In this document: in pieces, positions 18,426 through 44,737 of the stretch
Numbering within the stretch: position 1 is the stretch's first letter
Layout of the letters: every line of letters starts with the position of its first letter
DNA from: an uncultured delta proteobacterium
GTDB lineage: Bacteria; Desulfobacterota; Desulfuromonadia; Desulfuromonadales; BM103
Length of the DNA: 64,000 bases
Reading direction: 5' to 3'
NCBI GenBank assembly: GCA_963715335.1
Contig: CAVQRZ010000029.1
Span: 38,385 to 102,384 of the forward strand
The notes under the pieces: model-generated
Told to the model about the DNA's origin: nothing
Database searches by the model: none
What the model saw: only the letters and a program-made list of their open reading frames with translations
Program-made: the position numbers and the translations under genes

Positions 18426-18559
18426 CGCCTCTTAATTTTGCCACAGATCAAACCTGAAAAATCGGATCGCAAGACAAAACCATTCTAACGTAAAGCCCGA
18501 TCGGCGCAAGGAATACCTGCTCGCCCGCCTGCGCTTTTCGCGAACGCGTTCCCTGCCCG

Positions 18560-19180
18560 TCAGGAACACCGGCACAGATAGTCGGGGACCTGTCTTTTCG
18601 ACACCTTCATCAAACCACACATCAGGGCAAAGGAAACCTCCTCAAGCCCATAGCTTTCGCGCAGGTCCTCGGTCATCTTCATCCAGAGCAGGGCCGTCAT
18701 CTCCGCATCCGCCAGGGCGCGGTGGAAGGTGCCATCCGTACGCAGGCCCTTGTAGCGCACCAGGGTTTCCAGCTTGTGGTTGGGGGCGTCCGGATAGATG
18801 CGTCGCGCGGTCAGCATCGAGCAGCCGAACTCCTGGCTGCGCCGGGCGCCGATCCGCCGGAATTCGGCATCGAGGAAGCGGCGGTCGAAGGAGGCGTTAT
18901 GCGCGACCAGCGGCCGGTCGCCGATGAAACGGGCAAAATCACGCATCACCCGATCAGCCTTTGGCGCCGACTCGACCATCTGGTTGCTGATGCCGGTGTA
19001 GGATTCGATGAAGCTGTTGATCCGGACGCCGGGATTCATCAGGCTCTGGAAGCGGTCGACCATCTCACCTTGGCGCAACATCACGGCACCGATCTCGATG
19101 GCCCGGTCACCGTGGTCGGGTGAGATGCCGCTGGTCTCAAAGTCGAGAACGACGATCGTTTCGCAGGACGTTGTAACCAT
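18560..19180 (-). CDS. DEDDh 3'-5' exonuclease (DNA polymerase III epsilon-like)
   Basis: VLDFETSG, VAHNASFD, HRALADA. Confidence 0.9.
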   Translation of the reverse strand: MVTTSCETIVVLDFETSGISPDHGDRAIEIGAVMLRQGEMVDRFQSLMNPGVRINSFIESYTGISNQMVESAPKADRVMRDFARFIGDRPLVAHNASFDRRFLDAEFRRIGARRSQEFGCSMLTARRIYPDAPNHKLETLVRYKGLRTDGTFHRALADAEMTALLWMKMTEDLRESYGLEEVSFALMCGLMKVSKRQVPDYLCRCS

Positions 19181-35961: not shown

Positions 35962-36618
35962 TCAAGCCACTCCGTGTGGATGCTCGTCGACCTCCTCTTC
36001 TTCCCAGCCGTTCCACATCGGTTTGATATAGGCCATCGGTGTTTTGCCGAGCGTGGCGAGATAAACGTGGGTGAAGAGAAAGGCACAGAGGGTGCACGCC
36101 AGAAGAAAATGGATGGCAATCAAAATTTTCAGGCCACCGACCATCAGCACCAGTTCGCGCATGGGGTTGACATTGGTCAGTAACAGGCCGGTCAGACTGA
36201 CCAGAGGGACTAGAACGAACATGATGGCCAGGTACGCTGACTTCTGCATCGGATTGAACTTGTTTTCAGGGGTTGGATGGTGAGGGTTCTTCCAGCCCAG
36301 GAAGTAAGTCAGCAGGTAGAATTTGGCCTGGCGTAGCAGGCCGACCTGCAAGTCATCCTTGCTCGGCAGGTAAATCTTGAGCATGCTGCGGCTGATCAAC
36401 GCATAGTAGGTGAACCAGAGTGTGAAAGAAAACGTCACGACCAGCCCGGCAACGTTATGCAGCAGGATCGCAGCCTTGTAATTGGCGAACAGGTGGATAT
36501 GTTCCGGGAAACGGATCTGCACTGCAGTCACACACAGGGTGATGATCCCCAGGGCATTCAACCAGTGCCAGATGCGAACCGGTGTCGGCTGCAAGTATAT
36601 TTTAGTTGTGGATGACAT
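35962..36618 (-). CDS. cbcB: Di-heme cytochrome b subunit (Ni-hydrogenase/FdnI b-type fold)
   Basis: RIWHWLNA, LHNVAG, KFNPMQK, IHFLLA..THVY His ligands; adjacent to a 7-heme cytochrome. Confidence 0.8.
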   Translation of the reverse strand: MSSTTKIYLQPTPVRIWHWLNALGIITLCVTAVQIRFPEHIHLFANYKAAILLHNVAGLVVTFSFTLWFTYYALISRSMLKIYLPSKDDLQVGLLRQAKFYLLTYFLGWKNPHHPTPENKFNPMQKSAYLAIMFVLVPLVSLTGLLLTNVNPMRELVLMVGGLKILIAIHFLLACTLCAFLFTHVYLATLGKTPMAYIKPMWNGWEEEEVDEHPHGVA

Positions 36619-36623
36619 GGCTA

Positions 36624-37676
36624 TTACTCCTCATGTTTACGGTTTTTGCGCGTCAGGAAGCGCAGGGTTCCATGTCCGATCGGCATGACCATGCCACCGG
36701 CAAGAATGACCAGACCGACGTAATTGAGCGCGGTACTCCTCGTGGCTCCGACCATGTAGAAGTCCGGTGTTCCGTACAGAGCATCAAGGACCGCTCCCTT
36801 CTCGACGGCAACGCGCCGGAAACTGCCGTCTCGTTCTGCCAGAGAAAGATAACTCACCTGCATTGCTCCCGGTCCGGAAGCGTGACAGAAGGAGCAGTCC
36901 CAGCGATCGTCCTGGGTGCGGAAGTCGTGATAGACATGTTCCGGAGTCATCATTCCTTGAAGGCGCAACTGCTTTTTCTCTGAATCGAGATTGAACATCC
37001 GTAATTCAGCGAGCGAAATGTAGTTGTCGGCATTGACATCGACCAGCTCCTGGATCGGCCTGTCTCCGGCGAGGGCAACCAGTTCATCGTAGGACGCCAG
37101 CTTGAATTGGCCAAAAAGAGTTTCGCTCTGCCGCTTGATAATGTAGAGACTGATGACAAAATTTTCGACCGGTGAATGGCAAGTGATACACGGCAGCATA
37201 CTGATATGCAGGTCGGCCTGAGGCAACCATTCGGCATGCTTGGTCAGCATTTCTGCACGTTCATGACATGCAGAGCACTGCAGGTTCATGTCATGTCCGG
37301 AAACAGCCGTCGGCCCGAGAGCCCGGTGAGGATTGTGGCAATCGCTGCAGCTGGCATTTTCAGCATGGCCGCTGGCACTGTATTCTTCACCGACGGCATC
37401 ATGACACTCTGAGCAGCTGGCTTTGGAAGGTGTCAAGCCGTCATCAGGGTGTTCTTCTGTAATCGTTGCATGGCAGGCGTGACAGCCGACGTCAGCATGT
37501 GCCGTGTGATCAAAGCGGAGGGCTGCGATTACCAATTCTTCACCGACCATGTCCGGGTCGTTGTGGCAAGCCATGCAATCACTGCTTTCCATGGAGAAGG
37601 CCATAATCGGTGCCAGACTCAGAAGCAACATGAGCAGCCCTGCTCGTAAGGTTTTATGGATTGTTCGCTTGATCAT
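36624..37676 (-). CDS. cbcA: 7-heme c-type cytochrome with EF-hand-like motif and C-terminal TM anchor
   Basis: CMACH, CHACH, CSECH, CSDCH, CSACH, CITCH, CSFCH; DVNADNYISLAEL; signal peptide. Confidence 0.82.
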   Translation of the reverse strand: MIKRTIHKTLRAGLLMLLLSLAPIMAFSMESSDCMACHNDPDMVGEELVIAALRFDHTAHADVGCHACHATITEEHPDDGLTPSKASCSECHDAVGEEYSASGHAENASCSDCHNPHRALGPTAVSGHDMNLQCSACHERAEMLTKHAEWLPQADLHISMLPCITCHSPVENFVISLYIIKRQSETLFGQFKLASYDELVALAGDRPIQELVDVNADNYISLAELRMFNLDSEKKQLRLQGMMTPEHVYHDFRTQDDRWDCSFCHASGPGAMQVSYLSLAERDGSFRRVAVEKGAVLDALYGTPDFYMVGATRSTALNYVGLVILAGGMVMPIGHGTLRFLTRKNRKHEE

Positions 37677-37706
37677 ATCGATCCCCTTGATTGATGTTTG
37701 TCAGGT

Positions 37707-37956
37707 TCAACGCAGCATCTGCCTGATCGACTGCGGGTTCTTTTCCGTCAAATCGCAGATGAGCTGCGGTACGGTTTTGAGCGCGGCAAAAGACCTGGGA
37801 AACGACAATAATCCCGCAGTAGCCAAGGAAGAAGCGAATCGTCAGGCCGCTGACTCCTTCCATCACATCCAGGGTCAACCATGTCGCGATCCCGGCACTG
37901 ATGAACAGGGCCATACTGGCCGTCCAGAGCAGTAAAAGTTTCCATCCGATTTCCAT
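37707..37956 (-). CDS. Small membrane protein of the cbcBA operon (one apparent frameshift near 37788)
   Basis: RBS GGAGGT; removing one T from a T-run gives ...SQVFAALKTVPQLICDLTEKNPQSIRQMLR*. Confidence 0.6.
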
Positions 37957-37998
37957 AACGACCTCCATCTCTGCCTTGTTATAGCCACGTCAGGGCAT

Positions 37999-38247
37999 CT
38001 ACTCCTCGCCAAGCACCTCTACTTCGACCGGGCTCTTGCTGCTGCTGAAAACAGACTTCACCAGGCCAAAGATCAGGAACAATGCCGGCAGGAGCTGCAC
38101 GATCACGATCAGAGCGCACATGCAGAGGAACGCCCAGACCATTATCATGCTGCTATCGTCTCTGACACCGGTTGCGGCCATGAGATTTGAAGCCAGAGCG
38201 CATTGAGCTGCCAGAACCATCATCAAGATTGTCATTTTGCGTTTCAT
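37999..38247 (-). CDS. Small membrane protein of the cbcBA operon
   Basis: RBS AAGGAGA; signal-like N-terminus then WAFLCMCALIVIVQLLPALFLIFGLVK. Confidence 0.75.
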   Translation of the reverse strand: MKRKMTILMMVLAAQCALASNLMAATGVRDDSSMIMVWAFLCMCALIVIVQLLPALFLIFGLVKSVFSSSKSPVEVEVLGEE

Positions 38248-38260
38248 GGTTTTTCTCCTT

Positions 38261-38703
38261 TTATAAGGGTTGCTCATATCCTTGCCCGGTTTCGCAGGGA
38301 TGAAACGGCCTGGTCGCATACAACGCGCTGTTACAGGCACAGTCGACAGCCAATTGCAGTTCATCCCACCCTTCGGCACAATCTGGCTGATTGGTACGGT
38401 AGAAAACACCTTGCTGAGCGAATACAGAGTTCATCTGAATGCGACACGTCGTCCGAGGCAAGGATGATGGTCAAATGTGGGTTGCAGCTCTTCAGCAAAG
38501 GGATCAGGCGTGCAAAAGAAAGGTCTTCTTCCAGCCCGTCGCTGAGAACAACGATTGACCGTTCCGCCGCGCAGAAGCATCTCCATCAGGCATGCTGCAG
38601 ACCCGGTGGTTGCGATCGCAACGATCCCGTCTGACAACATCCTCGCCATACGGGCACGCTGGATCGGATTTTTTCCGGCGACGATGAACATGGGTCTCGG
38701 CAT
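38261..38703 (-). pseudogene. Stand-alone degenerate receiver-like protein split by two frameshifts
   Basis: Stitched: MPRPMFIVAG...LLRGG|RSIVVLSDGLEE..LIPLLKSCNPHLTIILASDD..CIR|QQGVFYRTNQP..ELQLAVDCA; breaks near 38560 and 38416. Confidence 0.65.
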
Positions 38704-38747
38704 GGCGGCGTTACTCCCCTGAGGTGAGATCTTTGTGGTGTAGGCAG

Positions 38748-38993
38748 TCATTTCAGAATCAGCCTTCCTGTTTTCTTTCGCCGCCGGAAATAGGCTGCTT
38801 TGATCAGGCCGCCCAGCAGCATGATGGCCGGAACCACCTGGATGGCGATGACGGCTGAAACAAAGGCGAGGAAGATGGTACGCATCGGCTCGGTTCCAGC
38901 CGCAGCGCCCCCGGCAAGAGGAATGATTGCCGTCCCGGTAGCGACGACGATGATGATCAACGCACTGAAGAATTTTGAGAATTTTGGTTTCAT
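38748..38993 (-). CDS. Small membrane protein, first gene of the cbcBA operon
   Basis: RBS AAGGAGG; IFLAFVSAVIAIQVVPAIMLLGGLIK. Confidence 0.78.
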   Translation of the reverse strand: MKPKFSKFFSALIIIVVATGTAIIPLAGGAAAGTEPMRTIFLAFVSAVIAIQVVPAIMLLGGLIKAAYFRRRKKTGRLILK

Positions 38994-39039
38994 GGCAGCC
39001 TCCTTGGGATTTGGGTTGCTCGTGTTGTCTTATACAGGG

Positions 39040-39197
39040 AGCAACCGCCATACCAAGGCCATGAACGCCTTGAAAAACTTTTTTTATACAATGAAATCAG
39101 CAGCTTGAAAGATTTAACCAAAAGCGGGAGGGCAGTGCGGATTCCTGTCGCGCAAGAAAAAGTCCTGCCGCACAGGAAGATTCCAACGACACAGGAA
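39040..39197 (-). promoter_or_regulatory. sigma54 promoter with IHF site and three enhancer (UAS) palindromes for the cbcBA operon
   Basis: TGGTATG-N4-TTGCT (39055-39040); IHF-like AATCAG-N4-TTG (39095-107); TTCCTG-N5-CAGGAA-like sites at 39142, 39162, 39181. Confidence 0.75.
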
Positions 39198-40447
39198 TGC
39201 CGCTGCTTTGAAAAGACGTGGTCAGTTGAGGTGAAATCTGATGCTTTTTAATCAGTGAGTAAAGGCGCGACCTTGAAAGGCCGGACAACTGGCAGGCCTG
39301 GCTGATATTCTGTCCGGCATGCTGTACAAGGTTGGACAGGTACCGTCTTTCCGCCTGGTCGAACACACCATTGCGGAAATCCTGCAGGGAGGGAAGTCTG
39401 CCGCCCACGTAAGCGCTCTGCCTGTTATGGCTGGAGGCGAAGGGCCTTCAGGGCGGATTTGGCGACCCGGATACGGATATGCTGCGGCAGATGTTTCGGG
39501 AAAAGAGTGGTTTCATACCTGGCCGTAAAGAGGGCCTGCTCAAGGGTGTTGATCAGTTCACGTACGTTGCCCGGCCAGGGGTACAAGGAAAGTGTCTGGA
39601 TGAATTCGGGCGTCAACTGCTTGGAGCAGAACTCGTGCCTCTGGCACAAGCGGTTCATGTGATAAACGGCCAAAGGATGAATATCACCGATCCGGCTACG
39701 CAGTGCCGGCAGGGTTATACAATAGGACTGCAATCGGTAAAGCAGATCCTGCCGGAACTGCCCGAGGGCAACCTTTTGTTGCAGATCGCGGTTGGTTGCA
39801 GCAACCAGGCGAAAATCGCTGTTGACTTCCGTCTTGTTCCCGAGCGGTCGGAAAGAATGCTCCTGCAATACTCGCAGAAAGGCCTTCTGCAGCGTTGGCG
39901 ACAACTCCCCGACTTCGTCAAGAAACAGGGTGCCGCAGTGTGCCTGGCGAATGAGGCCTTCGCAGGCTTTGTCCGCACCGGTAAAAGCTCCTTTTTCATG
40001 ACCAAAAAGCAGGCTGGCAACCATCGATTCAGGGAGGACCGTGCAGTCGATGGCGACAAAGTTGCCGCTTGCCCGGGCGCTGTTTTTATGAATGGCCCGG
40101 GCGAACAGTTCCTTGCCGGTGCCGGTCTCGCCACAAAGCAATACGCTGGCATCGGTCGCTGCTGCCTCCAGCAGTAGCCTCAGACAATCTGACAGGTTCT
40201 TACTGGTGCCGACAATTTCACTGCAGGGATTCTCATCTTCGTTAGCCACGTTTTCGTCGTAGGCGCCACGCTCAGCACAGATACTGAGCAAATCATCAGA
40301 AAGTCTGACCTTGATCTGGTTGGCGCGGACACCGGGGATTTCGACTTTGACATAAACCCGGCCGTCTTTTTCAACAACGTCAATACTCGAGGAAGGGAGA
40401 AATCTTGATGTCGGTAAAGGTATACGCTCCGAATGTTCTGACCCCAC
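39097..40447 (-). pseudogene. sigma54 enhancer-binding protein with N-terminal Hsp20-like domain; Fis-HTH separated by one apparent frameshift near 39445
   Basis: [67 protein letters not shown] (NISQACQLSGLSRSRLY) in the next frame; GTG start with RBS AAGGGAG. Confidence 0.8.
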
Positions 40448-40499
40448 GGCAGGCTCCCTTACGGTTTGCAATCAGAGTGGTGACCACAGTCCGAATAGC

Positions 40500-40635
40500 A
40501 GCAGGAGCCGTGCCAAACTCATGGCCTTGGCGAAACGGCGTATTATCAGCCACTTGCTATGAATCAGGTTGTCTGCACGTTTTCGCAGAGCAAGGATCAT
40601 TCCTGTTTGACAAGAATTTTCCTGTCGCAGCGGAG
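40500..40635 (-). promoter_or_regulatory. Second sigma54 promoter + IHF + UAS cassette, upstream of the Hsp20-bEBP gene
   Basis: TGGCACG-N4-CTGCT (40515-40500); TATCAG-N4-TTG (40544-56); TTCCTG-TTTGA-CAAGAA (40600), with weaker copies at 40581 and 40619. Confidence 0.72.
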
Positions 40636-42080
40636 AACATTCGCCAGGGCGGGTGATGTTGCGGGTTGCCGGTTTCGGTTGACCTGGTGCTTTTTCATCA
40701 GCGCGTAGAGGCGGGACTGGGACAGCCCGGAAAGGTTGCAGGCTTCGCTGATGTCATGATCCGATAGGGCCAGCAGGTCCTGCAGGTAATTTTTTTCAGC
40801 CTCATTATAGACGGCATCACGGTAGTCATGCAGTTTCGGCAGGGTATGAATCGTACCATTGTCGAGAGAAAGAGCTCTGCTCAGGGTCCTGCGCGACGGC
40901 AGCACGAGTCACTTCAACGCGGAGACCGGTCGGCAAATGCTTGGGGAAAAGGGTCGTCTCGTAGCGTGCCGCGGCCAGGGTCTGCTCCATGGTATGGACA
41001 AATTCTCGCACATTCCCCGGCCACGGATAGGCTTTCAGCGTGTTCGTAAAGTCAGGCGAGAAACCTTTAGGCGGCAGGCCGTATCGGTTGACAGAACTGG
41101 TCGGCATAGAAGCGTGCCAGCATTTGCAGATCGTCGAGTCGATCCCGCAACGGCGGCAATTCGATTACGTAAGTGCGGAGGCGAAACAGAAGGTCTTCAC
41201 GAAACTGCCCGTTTTTGACCATCTGATCAAGGTCACGATTGGTTGCTGCGACAAGCCGGAAATCACTTTCGATTTCACGACTGCCGCCCAGAGGTCTGAA
41301 TCTGCGCTCCTGCAAAACCCGCAGGAAAGCCTTTTGCAGAGGAAGCGGCAACTCCCCCACTTCGTCGAGAAAGAGGGTGCCACAGTGCGCCTGGCGCACC
41401 AGGCCATCACGGGCTTTTTCCGCACCGGTAAAAGAGCCCTTCTCGTGACCAAAAAGCAGACTCTCAATGAGGGTTTCCGGAAGCGCCGTGCAGTCTACAA
41501 CGACGAAGTTGCCCCCGGCGCGTTGGCTGTTCTCATGAACGGCCCGGGCGAACAACTCCTTGCCGGTACCGGTTTCGCCGGTGATAAAGACATTGACATC
41601 ACTGCCGGCAGCCTGGGCCGTCATGTCGAGACAAACCTGCAACCTGGGGCTCTCGCCAATGATCTTTGGCCGTTTGAGCGCGGCGACTTTACTTTTTTGG
41701 CGGACAGCCTGTTTTTCAGTGCGGTACTGCAGGGCACGTTCCAGCGCAAGGCGAATCTCTTTCGCTGACGAACTCTTCTCGATATAGTCCCAGGCCCCGC
41801 TCTTGATCGCCAGTTCCGCCCCGCTCGGATCGCCGAACCCGGTGATGATAATGACTTCGGGTGCCGAAGAGAGGGCTTCAAGTCTTGGCAGCAGGTCGAG
41901 GCCGTTGCCATCAGGCAGGTGGACATCCAGAAAGACCACGTCGAACAAGCGACCTGCGGCTCGTCTCTGCCCTTCATGCAGAGAGGTGACATACTCCACC
42001 TCATGCCCACTGCGCTTGACCAGGTTCGACAGGGTCGCGCACATCAGGTCGTCATCATCAATAATCAAGACCTCTGCCAT
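40597..42080 (-). pseudogene. bccR: NtrC-type sigma54 response regulator (BccR-like), two apparent frameshifts near 41090 and 40865
   Basis: Receiver (IIDDD, FLDVHLPDG), AAA+ ([14 protein letters not shown]), WPGNVRE and Fis-HTH in three successive ORFs; synteny with cbcBA. Confidence 0.7.
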
Positions 42081-44497
42081 GTTGACTCTTCCCTGGACGG
42101 ATTCTCGAGCAATTGCCGTATGACCTGGCTCATCTCGCTGCGTTCATATGGTTTCTGCATAAACTCCCTGATGCCAATCGCTCTGGCCTTGGCCAGTGAA
42201 AACCCGGAACTGTCAGACATCCCGTTACCGGAGCAGAGAATGATCGGCACCTCAGCGCGGATTTTGAGGATCTCTTTGGCGAGCATTTCACCGGTCAGAT
42301 AAGGCATGGTCTGGTCGGTAATCACCAGGTCGAAGCTGTCTGGCTGGAGCATGAATAATTGCAGCGCTGCCCGGCTGTCGGTGTCGGCAACAACCTCGTA
42401 ACCAAGTTTTTCCAGAATTTTTTTCCCCGCAAGCACCAGGTCTGGTTCGTCGTCAACAAAAAGGATTTTTTCGTGACCTTTTGCAGCCATCAGGGTGTTC
42501 TTCCGTGCAGGCTGTTCCTTGGTGCGGTAGACTTTGGGCAGGTAAACATGGAATTTGGACCCTTGCCCGGGGAGACTCTCTGCGTTCAGGAGGCCTCCAT
42601 GGTTCTTGATAATGCTGTGCGCAACGGACAACCCGAGGCCTGTCCCCTTGCCCGGCCCTTTCGTGGAAAAAAATGGGTCAAACACCCGCTCCAGAACATC
42701 CCTATCCATGCCGTGCCCCGTATCCTGGATCGAAAGTTTCAGGTAACTTCCCGGCTTCAAGGTGGTCTTGAGGTCCCTGTTCCGGGACGAGACGGTGACT
42801 TCATCCAGGGCTATCTCGAGAACCCCGTGTCCTTGTTCTGCCATGGCATCTGCTGCATTCGTACAGATATTGAGGATCACCTGATGGAGTTGGCCCGGGT
42901 CCGCCGCCACCACTCCCAGGTTCGGGGAGATGTTGGTTCGAATTTCAATCGTTGAAGGCAGGCTCGCCCTTAACAGGTGGATGCATTCTGTGACAATAAA
43001 TTCGATAATAACCGGCTTGCGTTCTTGAATATTCTGGCGACTGATGGTCAGGATTTGTTTCACCAGGTCTTTGCCACGGCCCCCCGCCTGGTATACAACA
43101 TCGAGGTGCTCGCGAAGTTTGTCCCCTTGCGGAAGATCGTCGAGGACCAGTTCGGTATTGTTCAAAATCGCTGCCAGAATGTTGTTGAAATCATGAGCAA
43201 TGCCACCGGCAAGTGTCGCGATCGCCTCCATCTTTTGTGCTGTCCGCAACTGATCTTGAAGTTCTGTTTCATAGGTTATGTCGTGGATGACTGCAACATA
43301 ACGGACAATGTCTGAAGACTCGGTAACCACGGGCGAAATGTTCGCCTCGACCTGGTAGCGGGAACCATCCTTGCGCTCTTTGAGAAACTGTTCTTTGATC
43401 GATTCTCCTGTCTTTATGACCTTTTTGACGGCCTGAAAAAAGTCCTGGTTCTGCTGCGCGCATGGCAGGGCCTCAAGCCTGTTGCCGACCACCTCACTGG
43501 TGCTGACTCCGCAGATTTTTTCCCAGGCCGGGTTGAGATACAGGACTCGAGTGTCCTGGTCAAAAGTCATGACTCCTTCGGAGGCCTGGTGAATCACCTT
43601 GGCCAGGATCAACTGCTCTTCCTTGACTTTCTTTTGTGCCGCCTCGCTATGAATGCTTCTGATCCGACTGGCCAGATCATCCGTGAGTTCTTCAAGGTGG
43701 CAAGCTTCTTCCGCATCAAACGAACCGGCTTCGGCAGCAAGGATCACCAGGACACCGTAAACACTGTTGCGATCGTGCAATGGCAGCGAGATTGCCGAAG
43801 TAAAGCCATGCGCCAGAGCCGTCTCCCGCCACGGCTTGAAGTTGGGATGTGACATGATGTCCTGCACGATGACGGTCTGGCCGGTTCGTATACTTGTCCC
43901 TGCCGGCCCTTGCCCGTAAACGGACTCGTCCCATTTCACTTTCAGGTCATTCAGGTAACAATCCTCGTAGCCCCAGTGGGCGACCGGCGTGATCTTCTTA
44001 TCTTCATCGTGAGAGGGATATCCGACCCAGGCCAGGCGATATCCCCCCAGGACCACCAGAATTCGACAAATTGTACGCAAAAGCTCATATTCATCATTGT
44101 TCCGGGTCGTGGCCTTCTTGCATTCACTGAACACGCGCAAAGCGCGATTGACCCGGTGCAGGGCCTCTTCGGAACGGATGTATGTCAGCTCCTGGTGTCG
44201 AATCAGCAAAAACAAAAGTTGAGCCGAGATGATAATGAACAGCCATTGGCTGATAATTTTGGCCGTGTACAGGGTGTCCACGTCGAGAATCAACGCCGAG
44301 AGAATCGGTTCAGAAAAAAAGACCCAGAGTCCGCCGACGACCGCATATGTGGTGCTGATGGAGTAGGCACTAAACCAGGGTTTCAGGGTTTTCTGCGAAA
44401 ACGGCTGTTTTCTTGATGTCTTGATCAAGGAGAGATCAGGCTTGCGGCAAGCTTCAAGTTTCGACACGGGAGCCTCTTTGCCCAGGGGGTTTTTCAA
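42065..44497 (-). CDS. Hybrid sensor histidine kinase (TM-GAF-PAS-HisKA-HATPase-REC)
   Basis: GQGPAG GAF motif, PAS, AGGIAHDFNN, GKGTGLGL, LFVDDE..LVITDQTMP; exact start uncertain (44497 or 44467). Confidence 0.92.
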   Translation of the reverse strand: MKNPLGKEAPVSKLEACRKPDLSLIKTSRKQPFSQKTLKPWFSAYSISTTYAVVGGLWVFFSEPILSALILDVDTLYTAKIISQWLFIIISAQLLFLLIRHQELTYIRSEEALHRVNRALRVFSECKKATTRNNDEYELLRTICRILVVLGGYRLAWVGYPSHDEDKKITPVAHWGYEDCYLNDLKVKWDESVYGQGPAGTSIRTGQTVIVQDIMSHPNFKPWRETALAHGFTSAISLPLHDRNSVYGVLVILAAEAGSFDAEEACHLEELTDDLASRIRSIHSEAAQKKVKEEQLILAKVIHQASEGVMTFDQDTRVLYLNPAWEKICGVSTSEVVGNRLEALPCAQQNQDFFQAVKKVIKTGESIKEQFLKERKDGSRYQVEANISPVVTESSDIVRYVAVIHDITYETELQDQLRTAQKMEAIATLAGGIAHDFNNILAAILNNTELVLDDLPQGDKLREHLDVVYQAGGRGKDLVKQILTISRQNIQERKPVIIEFIVTECIHLLRASLPSTIEIRTNISPNLGVVAADPGQLHQVILNICTNAADAMAEQGHGVLEIALDEVTVSSRNRDLKTTLKPGSYLKLSIQDTGHGMDRDVLERVFDPFFSTKGPGKGTGLGLSVAHSIIKNHGGLLNAESLPGQGSKFHVYLPKVYRTKEQPARKNTLMAAKGHEKILFVDDEPDLVLAGKKILEKLGYEVVADTDSRAALQLFMLQPDSFDLVITDQTMPYLTGEMLAKEILKIRAEVPIILCSGNGMSDSSGFSLAKARAIGIREFMQKPYERSEMSQVIRQLLENPSREESTWQRS

Positions 44498-44737
44498 ACG
44501 CCCGCCAAGTTTTAGCGCGCGCTAATATTTTAACCCGCGTCGAGGATCCGTCAACCTGCAAGGGTAAAGATTACCCAATTTCACATAAAAAAGGCAAAAC
44601 CGGGAGATGGTATGCTGGATTTTCCCCAGGCCCTGAGCAAAATCCGCTCAGAGCCGTCGGCAAAAGAAGAACTCGGGTTCAAGCGAGGCAGGCTGCACGC
44701 CTATGACGGAGTCCCGCCAAACAGGGACCGAGGGAAC

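Follow-up and report, generated by a model that had tools for sequence, protein, structure and literature searches.

A conserved half-crystallin–sigma54 activator fusion as a candidate feedback brake on a cbcBA-like cytochrome operon

In Geobacter sulfurreducens, CbcBA governs low-potential Fe(III) respiration. The accessible part of a preprint describes BccR as a REC–AAA+–HTH activator encoded divergently from the cbcBA operon (bioRxiv 10.1101/2021.04.15.440034). In the VnfA1/VnfA3 (and VnfA2) system of Azotobacter vinelandii, as the accessible text of PMC9542535 has it, a paralogue is expressed from a parent-activated promoter, acts on the same targets and forms hetero-oligomers. The same source cites HrpR/HrpS and FleQ/FleT as co-activating hetero-oligomeric bEBP pairs, and the accessible text of PMC10084136 describes RedR1/RedR2 as such a pair.

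We analysed a locus with a cbcBA-like arrangement in a 64-kb stretch of DNA (64,000 nucleotides; the window). Its gene order is conserved, running from a hybrid kinase through a response regulator (RR), the slot-2 gene, a small membrane gene, a receiver-only gene and small membrane genes to a seven-heme c cytochrome and a b cytochrome. The cbcBA-type features found are a seven-heme c cytochrome and a b-type cytochrome after small leader genes and a sigma54 promoter; the likeness to cbcBA (GSU0593/0594/0598) is one of published gene organisation, not of sequence comparison. An earlier reading of this DNA (the original prediction) had assigned the slot-2 gene to a respiratory cytochrome setting, which its place in this locus bears out. 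The locus is made up as follows:

42065–44497, minus strand: hybrid histidine kinase, GAF–PAS–HisKA–HATPase–REC (domain search)
40597–42080, minus strand: parent RR, REC–AAA+–HTH, BccR-like, its window copy with +1 insertions at about 40879 and at 41088
39222–40447, minus strand: slot-2 gene, half alpha-crystallin domain (half-ACD), sigma54 AAA+ and Fis-type HTH, the window copy with two +1 insertions
37654–38993, minus strand: leader of the operon, with small hydrophobic ORFs and, at about 38250–38720, a receiver-only gene that is frameshifted
36624–37676, minus strand: CbcA-like c cytochrome with seven hemes (seven CxxCH motifs) and a hydrophobic segment at the C-terminus
35962–36618, minus strand: b-type cytochrome, CbcB-like

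The RR reading frame (window 40597–40680) extends about 20 codons past the stop of its orthologues, into the enhancer region. The receiver-only leader gene (window 38250–38720) is broken by +1 insertions in the window and intact in relatives; it is lost in g10 loci that have an HTH-only or half-ACD–HTH gene directly before the operon. At L120, L121, L129, L131, L139 and L141 the cluster is flanked by a second, inverted leader module with another bEBP and kinase.

The slot-2 gene starts at a GTG at 40447 on the minus strand, the same start as in the intact relative P0001, a protein of 407 aa that is 94% identical to the window protein. As read, the window ORF spans 39425–40471 (minus strand) and encodes an N-terminal HSP20-like segment followed in frame by Sigma54_activat and the AAA+ lid. 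The parts of the gene are:

40268–40384, minus strand: half-ACD, strands β2–β5, ending before the β6 loop and without β7–β9
40217–40267, minus strand: variable linker between half-ACD and AAA+, pN/pS 0.63, the junction covered by independent contigs
39716–40216, minus strand: sigma54-activator AAA+ core, with Walker A, GAFTGA (39974–39991), Walker B and R-finger intact
39458–39700, minus strand: lid of the AAA+ domain, including sensor II, and better kept than any other part even where relatives are ATPase-dead
39232–39408, minus strand: Fis-type HTH, near-identical to that of the RR, its recognition helix starting with Arg, not Gln

The Sigma54_activat match (Pfam, E 1e-61) lies in the same frame as the crystallin segment, and motif inspection found Walker A and B, the GAFTGA (L1) loop, the R-finger and sensor II all intact in the window protein, as expected from the in-frame fusion originally proposed. 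The AAA+ is 64% identical to that of the upstream RR, which agrees with the claim of close paralogy. A Pfam search of the slot-2 protein gave no Response_reg match. The half-ACD stands where the receiver would be and, with the receiver replaced by this Hsp20-derived segment, the protein cannot be phosphorylated, as had been predicted. Its orthologues are intact half-ACD–AAA+–HTH proteins of 392–416 aa with the HTH in frame, and we conclude that the half-ACD–AAA+ fusion is real and conserved.

The window copy itself carries two frame breaks:

39438, no strand assigned: +1 insertion splitting AAA+ from HTH, missing from contigs of runs X3 and X5
39234–39236, no strand assigned: second +1 insertion just 5' of the proper stop, deduced from the P0001 C-terminus, with which a gap in X5 record 19 is consistent

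The extra base at 39438 ends the window ORF at 39425 and puts the HTH out of frame, and the one near 39235 carries the HTH frame on to 39097. The original span of 39097–40447 therefore had the correct start and an end that is a frameshift artefact, the proper stop being 39222–39224; as assembled, 39222–40447 comprises 1226 nt, or 408 codons plus 2. Contigs from two of four runs, of different studies, cover the ACD–AAA+ junction (run X5 record 20, 39419–40486; run X3 record 13, 39971–40719), and together with the intact relatives they rule out a misassembled junction. Single extra bases at about 38421, 38564, 38793, 39438, 40879 and 41088 in the window are not in close-strain contigs, each site being supported by one to three of runs X1, X3 and X5 (four runs compared; among the rows listed). 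All six indel sites listed for 38418–41088 are thus extra bases missing in close strains, and of seven frame breaks detected in 267 kb elsewhere in the genome, six are likewise net +1. For these two reasons an insertion-type sequencing or assembly error is the likely source of the window frameshifts. The frame breaks do cluster locally, at a density far above the genome background, as strain-specific pseudogenisation of this copy would have it, but the absence of the extra bases from close strains and the net +1 breaks elsewhere make such decay quite improbable.

The crystallin assignment is firm at the level of sequence profiles. Pfam HSP20 alone matches the window segment below its cut-off, at E 0.0017–0.023 and over model positions 1–39 of 102; the whole ORF gave 0.023 and the N-terminus by itself 0.0025 (model positions 2–39). 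A profile of six orthologous half-ACD segments does find small heat-shock proteins (sHsps), which account for 21 of the 22 PDB sequences it retrieved (best E 7.6e-6), so that the HSP20 match proposed as a check came out below threshold with the single model and positive with the family profile. The half-ACD profile aligns to the first half of 19 ordinary Hsp20s with an HH probability of 99%. It also aligns to their second half (β7–β9), with a probability of 71% that none of 60 column shuffles reached, and because of this second alignment the half-ACD is, on the profile evidence, one unit of the internal repeat of the pseudo-twofold ACD. Modelled with AF2, the 44-residue segment has four strands and a pLDDT of 86.8 (about 57–69 for the same segment inside the full-length model). 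The model of the segment superimposes on sHsp ACDs with a Foldseek TMq of 0.76 and an rmsd of 1.8 Å, but an E of only 0.6, and gives Z 4.2 against them in VIA, a low Z being expected for 44 residues. The predicted first half of an sHsp fold at the N-terminus is in this way upheld by profile, HH comparison and model alike. With the full-length model only AAA+ matches were among the Foldseek matches listed; the ESM Atlas gave sub-threshold matches (0.79) in HSP20-labelled clusters, which we regard as a lead, and a scan of the genome contigs with the slot-2 N-terminus sequence gave no match.

The β6 loop and β8 of sHsps take part in dimerisation and in the β4/β8 groove. The slot-2 protein has no complete β2–β9 sandwich, no β6 loop and no C-terminal IXI extension. 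No separate gene for the missing C-terminal half (β7–β9) was found in the genome or in the loci searched, which tells against a split domain completed by a partner gene. Since no gene for a complementary half was found, homodimerisation would be the simplest way to bury the half-ACD core, and the half-ACD, as one such repeat, may homodimerise.

We surveyed the fusion at several depths. Across 233 genomes of the order, the half-ACD profile gave 338 matches; the 150 listed include long fusion ORFs from at least 12 genomes, every one belonging to family f1. For the four other species of the window's genus, no long fusion ORF was among those 150 of 338 matches, and the RR/slot-2 HTH was not found in these genomes (G001–G004, with completeness of 83–96%), so that in this lineage it may be an accessory cluster. 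In a 401-genome sample of the class, with 12 candidates scored per genome, crystallin-reaching matches fell only in f1 and f12 among the matches listed (81 others); identical sequences suggest that f12 is Geopsychrobacteraceae. Named loci put the cluster in Desulfuromonadales and Geobacterales, and variants occur in the cultured Malonomonas rubra DSM 5091 (L109) and Pelovirga terrestris M08fum (L154). A protein search with an 11-row profile gave 64 matches, comprising 33 three-domain proteins (392–416 aa), 20 half-ACD–HTH proteins of 122–132 aa without any ATPase, one fragment and 10 ordinary Hsp20s. Searching 1.84 billion representatives yielded a small set of full-span matches, nearly all of the three-domain, mini-protein or Hsp20 types. 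None of the 33 three-domain proteins has a precomputed HSP20 label, and their database names are generic. An unrelated protein known from a single metagenome record, P0013, joins a longer Hsp20 piece (to about β7) to a truncated sigma54 AAA+ and looks like an assembly chimera.

Slot 2 takes several forms. HTH-only genes, in which the half-ACD is absent, occupy it in G013, G053 and G054, the half-ACD–HTH form in G050 and G051, and an ATPase-dead three-domain form in G052; the L1 loop is altered in G007, G018 and G047. A form that is ATPase-dead and HTH-less and has a partial ACD was matched in 27 of 72 f12 genomes. All 15 f12 loci read (two cut by contig ends) are without the GAFTGA loop and the HTH, and 12 keep a weak half-ACD match. 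The f12 proteins (L078 5454–6392 and others) have a conserved, probably helical N-terminal segment in place of the first crystallin strand, and end in a highly conserved basic tail directly after the lid. Half-ACD strands are also eroded in G032, G033 and G188.

A quick IQ-TREE analysis of 110 AAA+ rows, with long branches present, placed the 53 slot-2 rows together on one side of a branch that lies within the RR group (SH-aLRT 91, unstarred). Left out were 11 of the 64 slot-2 rows (two duplicates, eight without ATPase and one short). The topology is consistent with an origin of slot 2 by one duplication of the RR. Across seven three-domain genes, the half-ACD has a pN/pS of 0.21, the AAA+ core 0.18, L1 0.17 and the lid 0.22, but the N-terminal tail 0.87 and the linker 0.63; pN/pS is 0.19 for the slot-2 HTH (six genes) and 0.08 for the RR AAA+ core. 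We used pN/pS and close pairs, as pairwise dS is near saturation in distant pairs; in two close pairs half-ACD dN/dS is 0.07 and 0.15. The half-ACD is as constrained as the ATPase and therefore is not a recent chimera. The original prediction had raised a recent chimera from the truncated look of the domain, and both this and a decaying remnant are ruled out by the constraint and by a half-domain boundary that is the same across genera; purifying selection on the fusion, proposed as a check, is found in the window's relatives, and further genomes carry the same fusion. Outside the window, at G000:C1 about 41724–44500, a bEBP gene is immediately followed by the two ordinary hsp20 genes of the genome, which are preceded by a TGGCAC-type motif that has inverted repeats and an atypical -12. 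The fusion could plausibly have arisen from a bEBP–sigma54 promoter–hsp20 arrangement of this kind.

The RR and slot-2 proteins differ in what they have kept. Every one of the 49 RRs has all four activation motifs, against 14 of 62 slot-2 rows, a set that contains near-duplicates, two truncated rows and a probable RR remnant (L139). Counting three-domain rows alone, 5 of 19 do not have the full set (Fisher p 0.001, with kin that are not independent), and in the larger three-domain set a pattern test gave 10 of 33 failing and 23 keeping all motifs. The accessible text of PMC9020082 describes Glu E205 of NtrC1 as bEBP-specific. Its equivalent, mapped through an ungapped match of 3–166 to 141–304 of 1ny5, is kept in 49/49 RRs against 3/18 slot-2 rows, and is Ala in the window. 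The recognition-helix Arg (versus Gln) is found in 25 of 26 slot-2 rows and in none of the 49 RRs.

Upstream of both the slot-2 gene and the cytochrome operon we found the same promoter anatomy, of the following predicted elements:

40500–40515, minus strand: sigma54 -24/-12 promoter of the slot-2 gene (motif match)
39040–39055, minus strand: sigma54 -24/-12 promoter of the cbcBA-like operon (motif match)
40600–40630, no strand assigned: predicted enhancer upstream of the slot-2 promoter, a TTCCTG-N5-CAGGAA palindrome and a half-site
39142–39197, no strand assigned: predicted enhancer of the cytochrome operon, upstream of its promoter, with the above motif three times in tandem

The sigma54 pattern matches the 64-kb window only twice, before the slot-2 gene and before the operon; by count this is not above chance (mean 0.96 per window), and conservation is the stronger evidence. 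The motif is upstream of slot 2 in 32 of 32 loci examined (2.2% rate in shuffled pieces) and upstream of the operon in 23 of 27 regions. Tandem TTCCTG-N5-CAGGAA palindromes lie roughly 85–150 bp upstream of both promoters. Enhancer half-sites number 64 upstream of slot 2 against 14.1 expected, and 74 upstream of the operon against 11.2 expected, the pattern having been derived from the same upstream regions in which enrichment was counted. The window has four palindrome matches against 0.15 expected, three of them at these two promoters. The fourth, at 18550–18566, lies away from any detected sigma54 motif. As both units share this sigma54 promoter and enhancer anatomy, we infer that the RR activates the slot-2 gene as well as the cytochrome operon.

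On balance, we lean towards the slot-2 protein being an RR-induced feedback brake on the cbcBA-like cytochrome operon. The hybrid kinase would phosphorylate the RR, which would bind the TTCCTG-N5-CAGGAA enhancers and switch on both the operon and the slot-2 gene. The action of the slot-2 protein, without a receiver, would be set by its level alone. It would bind the same enhancers through its near-identical HTH, enter RR oligomers through its AAA+ and lid, or both, and RR-driven activation would be lowered after a delay. The half-ACD would probably be a constitutive dimerisation module, two copies of which complete the sandwich and hold a DNA-binding off-state dimer. The original prediction had called the protein an activator, and the intact motifs of the window copy fit that term, but relatives in the same slot repeatedly lose motifs, ATPase or HTH, which points to a brake. 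We favour the brake because inhibition is the sole role open to HTH-only and to ATPase-dead, HTH-less forms alike, and because activation parts were lost repeatedly in slot 2 and in none of 49 RRs. Against the brake, the ATPase and L1 are under strong purifying selection in the window's clade, 23 of 33 three-domain proteins keep all motifs, and known interacting paralogue pairs mostly co-activate. Subunit specialisation in hetero-rings could be another cause of relaxed GAFTGA, the Arg/Gln difference in the recognition helix could mean a changed DNA specificity, and different lineages may have different slot-2 functions.

These same observations bear on the other readings. A serious but less likely rival is that the three-domain protein acts as an amplifier or memory element: it would activate constitutively, or co-activate with the RR in hetero-hexamers, and its induction from its own sigma54 promoter would give positive feedback on the operon, the ATPase-less forms of other lineages being derived and acting differently. 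The intact motifs, from Walker A to sensor II, of the window and most three-domain proteins and the selection on AAA+ core and L1 suit it, as does the precedent of VnfA1→VnfA3, with a VnfA1-dependent sigma54 promoter, the same targets and co-activation (accessible text of PMC9542535). It sits poorly with repeated motif losses that the RRs do not share and with the loss of the E205 equivalent, it leaves the mini-proteins and ATPase-dead forms unexplained, and a sensor-less autoactivating loop would require an off-switch.

Stress or chaperone gating, with a cellular sHsp or an unfolded strand completing the sandwich so that activity tracks proteotoxic stress, would draw on the true ACD ancestry, on the exposed edge strands and on the presence in the genome of two ordinary Hsp20 genes downstream of a bEBP and a TGGCAC-type motif. 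We judge it improbable: the gene shares its sigma54 promoter and enhancer with the cytochrome operon, the heat-shock operator CIRCE has no match in the 64-kb window, the loci examined contain no Hsp20 gene, a gene coding for the missing half turned up neither in the genome nor in the loci searched, the half-ACD lacks the β6 loop and β8, and its strands are eroded or absent in the relatives named above. These results tell against the heat or chaperone gating originally suggested. The same erosion, with partial deletion in some relatives and absence from HTH-only forms, might instead mean that an hsp20 fragment inserted long ago gave the gene no more than a start for translation and plays no part as a folded domain, the AAA+/HTH remnants being what matters. 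The half-ACD is, however, far more constrained than the tail and linker, with low dN/dS in both close pairs, and it is retained in 20 mini-proteins that lost the whole ATPase, so we hold this passenger role to be very improbable.

Returning to the brake, a fuller version of it is possible but doubtful. The half-crystallin would be a 40-residue single ACD repeat that homodimerises into the full fold, a portable dimerisation module shared by anti-activators of paralogue origin. These would damp a sigma54 respiratory circuit in two ways, the half-ACD–HTH forms by competing for enhancers and the ATPase-dead, HTH-less forms by poisoning rings. If the half-domain does dimerise, this would be direct evidence that a crystallin fold can form from two identical halves. 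The half-ACD is an undescribed bEBP input domain that automatic annotation has missed, and the slot-2 series from complete paralogue through ATPase-dead to HTH-only offers a natural test of a duplicated activator becoming a feedback regulator. The analysis also predicts an enhancer sequence and a feedback loop for the cbcBA-like cytochrome cluster, and the idea is testable because cultured strains (Malonomonas rubra, Pelovirga terrestris) carry variants.

A literature search for an Hsp20–bEBP fusion or a half-ACD found nothing relevant, most subscription papers being outside its reach, in line with the original statement of knowing no characterised protein of this kind; the family is real, conserved and bEBP-derived, and we found no published description of it. 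HgtR, considered as an analogue of the HTH-only forms, was ruled out, being a 62-aa predicted ribbon-helix-helix protein in the accessible text of PMC2817479. With sHsps (Hsp20/alpha-crystallin, PF00011) and ACD/CS-like fusions such as ArsA_HSP20 (PF17886) the slot-2 protein shares the sequence and fold of β2–β5. It differs from sHsps in having a half sandwich without β6–β9 or a C-terminal IXI, fused to AAA+ or HTH. The cbcBA/BccR system, as far as its accessible description goes, is alike in that the activator lies beside a sigma54 operon whose genes encode small hypothetical proteins, a receiver, a seven-heme c cytochrome anchored at its C-terminus and a b-type cytochrome. It differs in orientation, since here the RR is co-directional with the operon, behind a hybrid kinase, and has the slot-2 paralogue after it; Geobacterales-type loci such as L142 and L135 showed no such paralogue. 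HrpR/HrpS, FleQ/FleT and RedR1/RedR2 are likewise tandem or paralogous bEBPs acting jointly, and HrpR/S are without an N-terminal sensor, but these pairs are co-activators and none has a crystallin segment. VnfA offers the likeness of a paralogous bEBP with its own parent-activated promoter, a regulation that is predicted here; the VnfA paralogues, in the accessible text, keep GAF sensors and co-activate, whereas the slot-2 proteins carry a half-ACD and many of their relatives have dispensed with the ATPase or the HTH.
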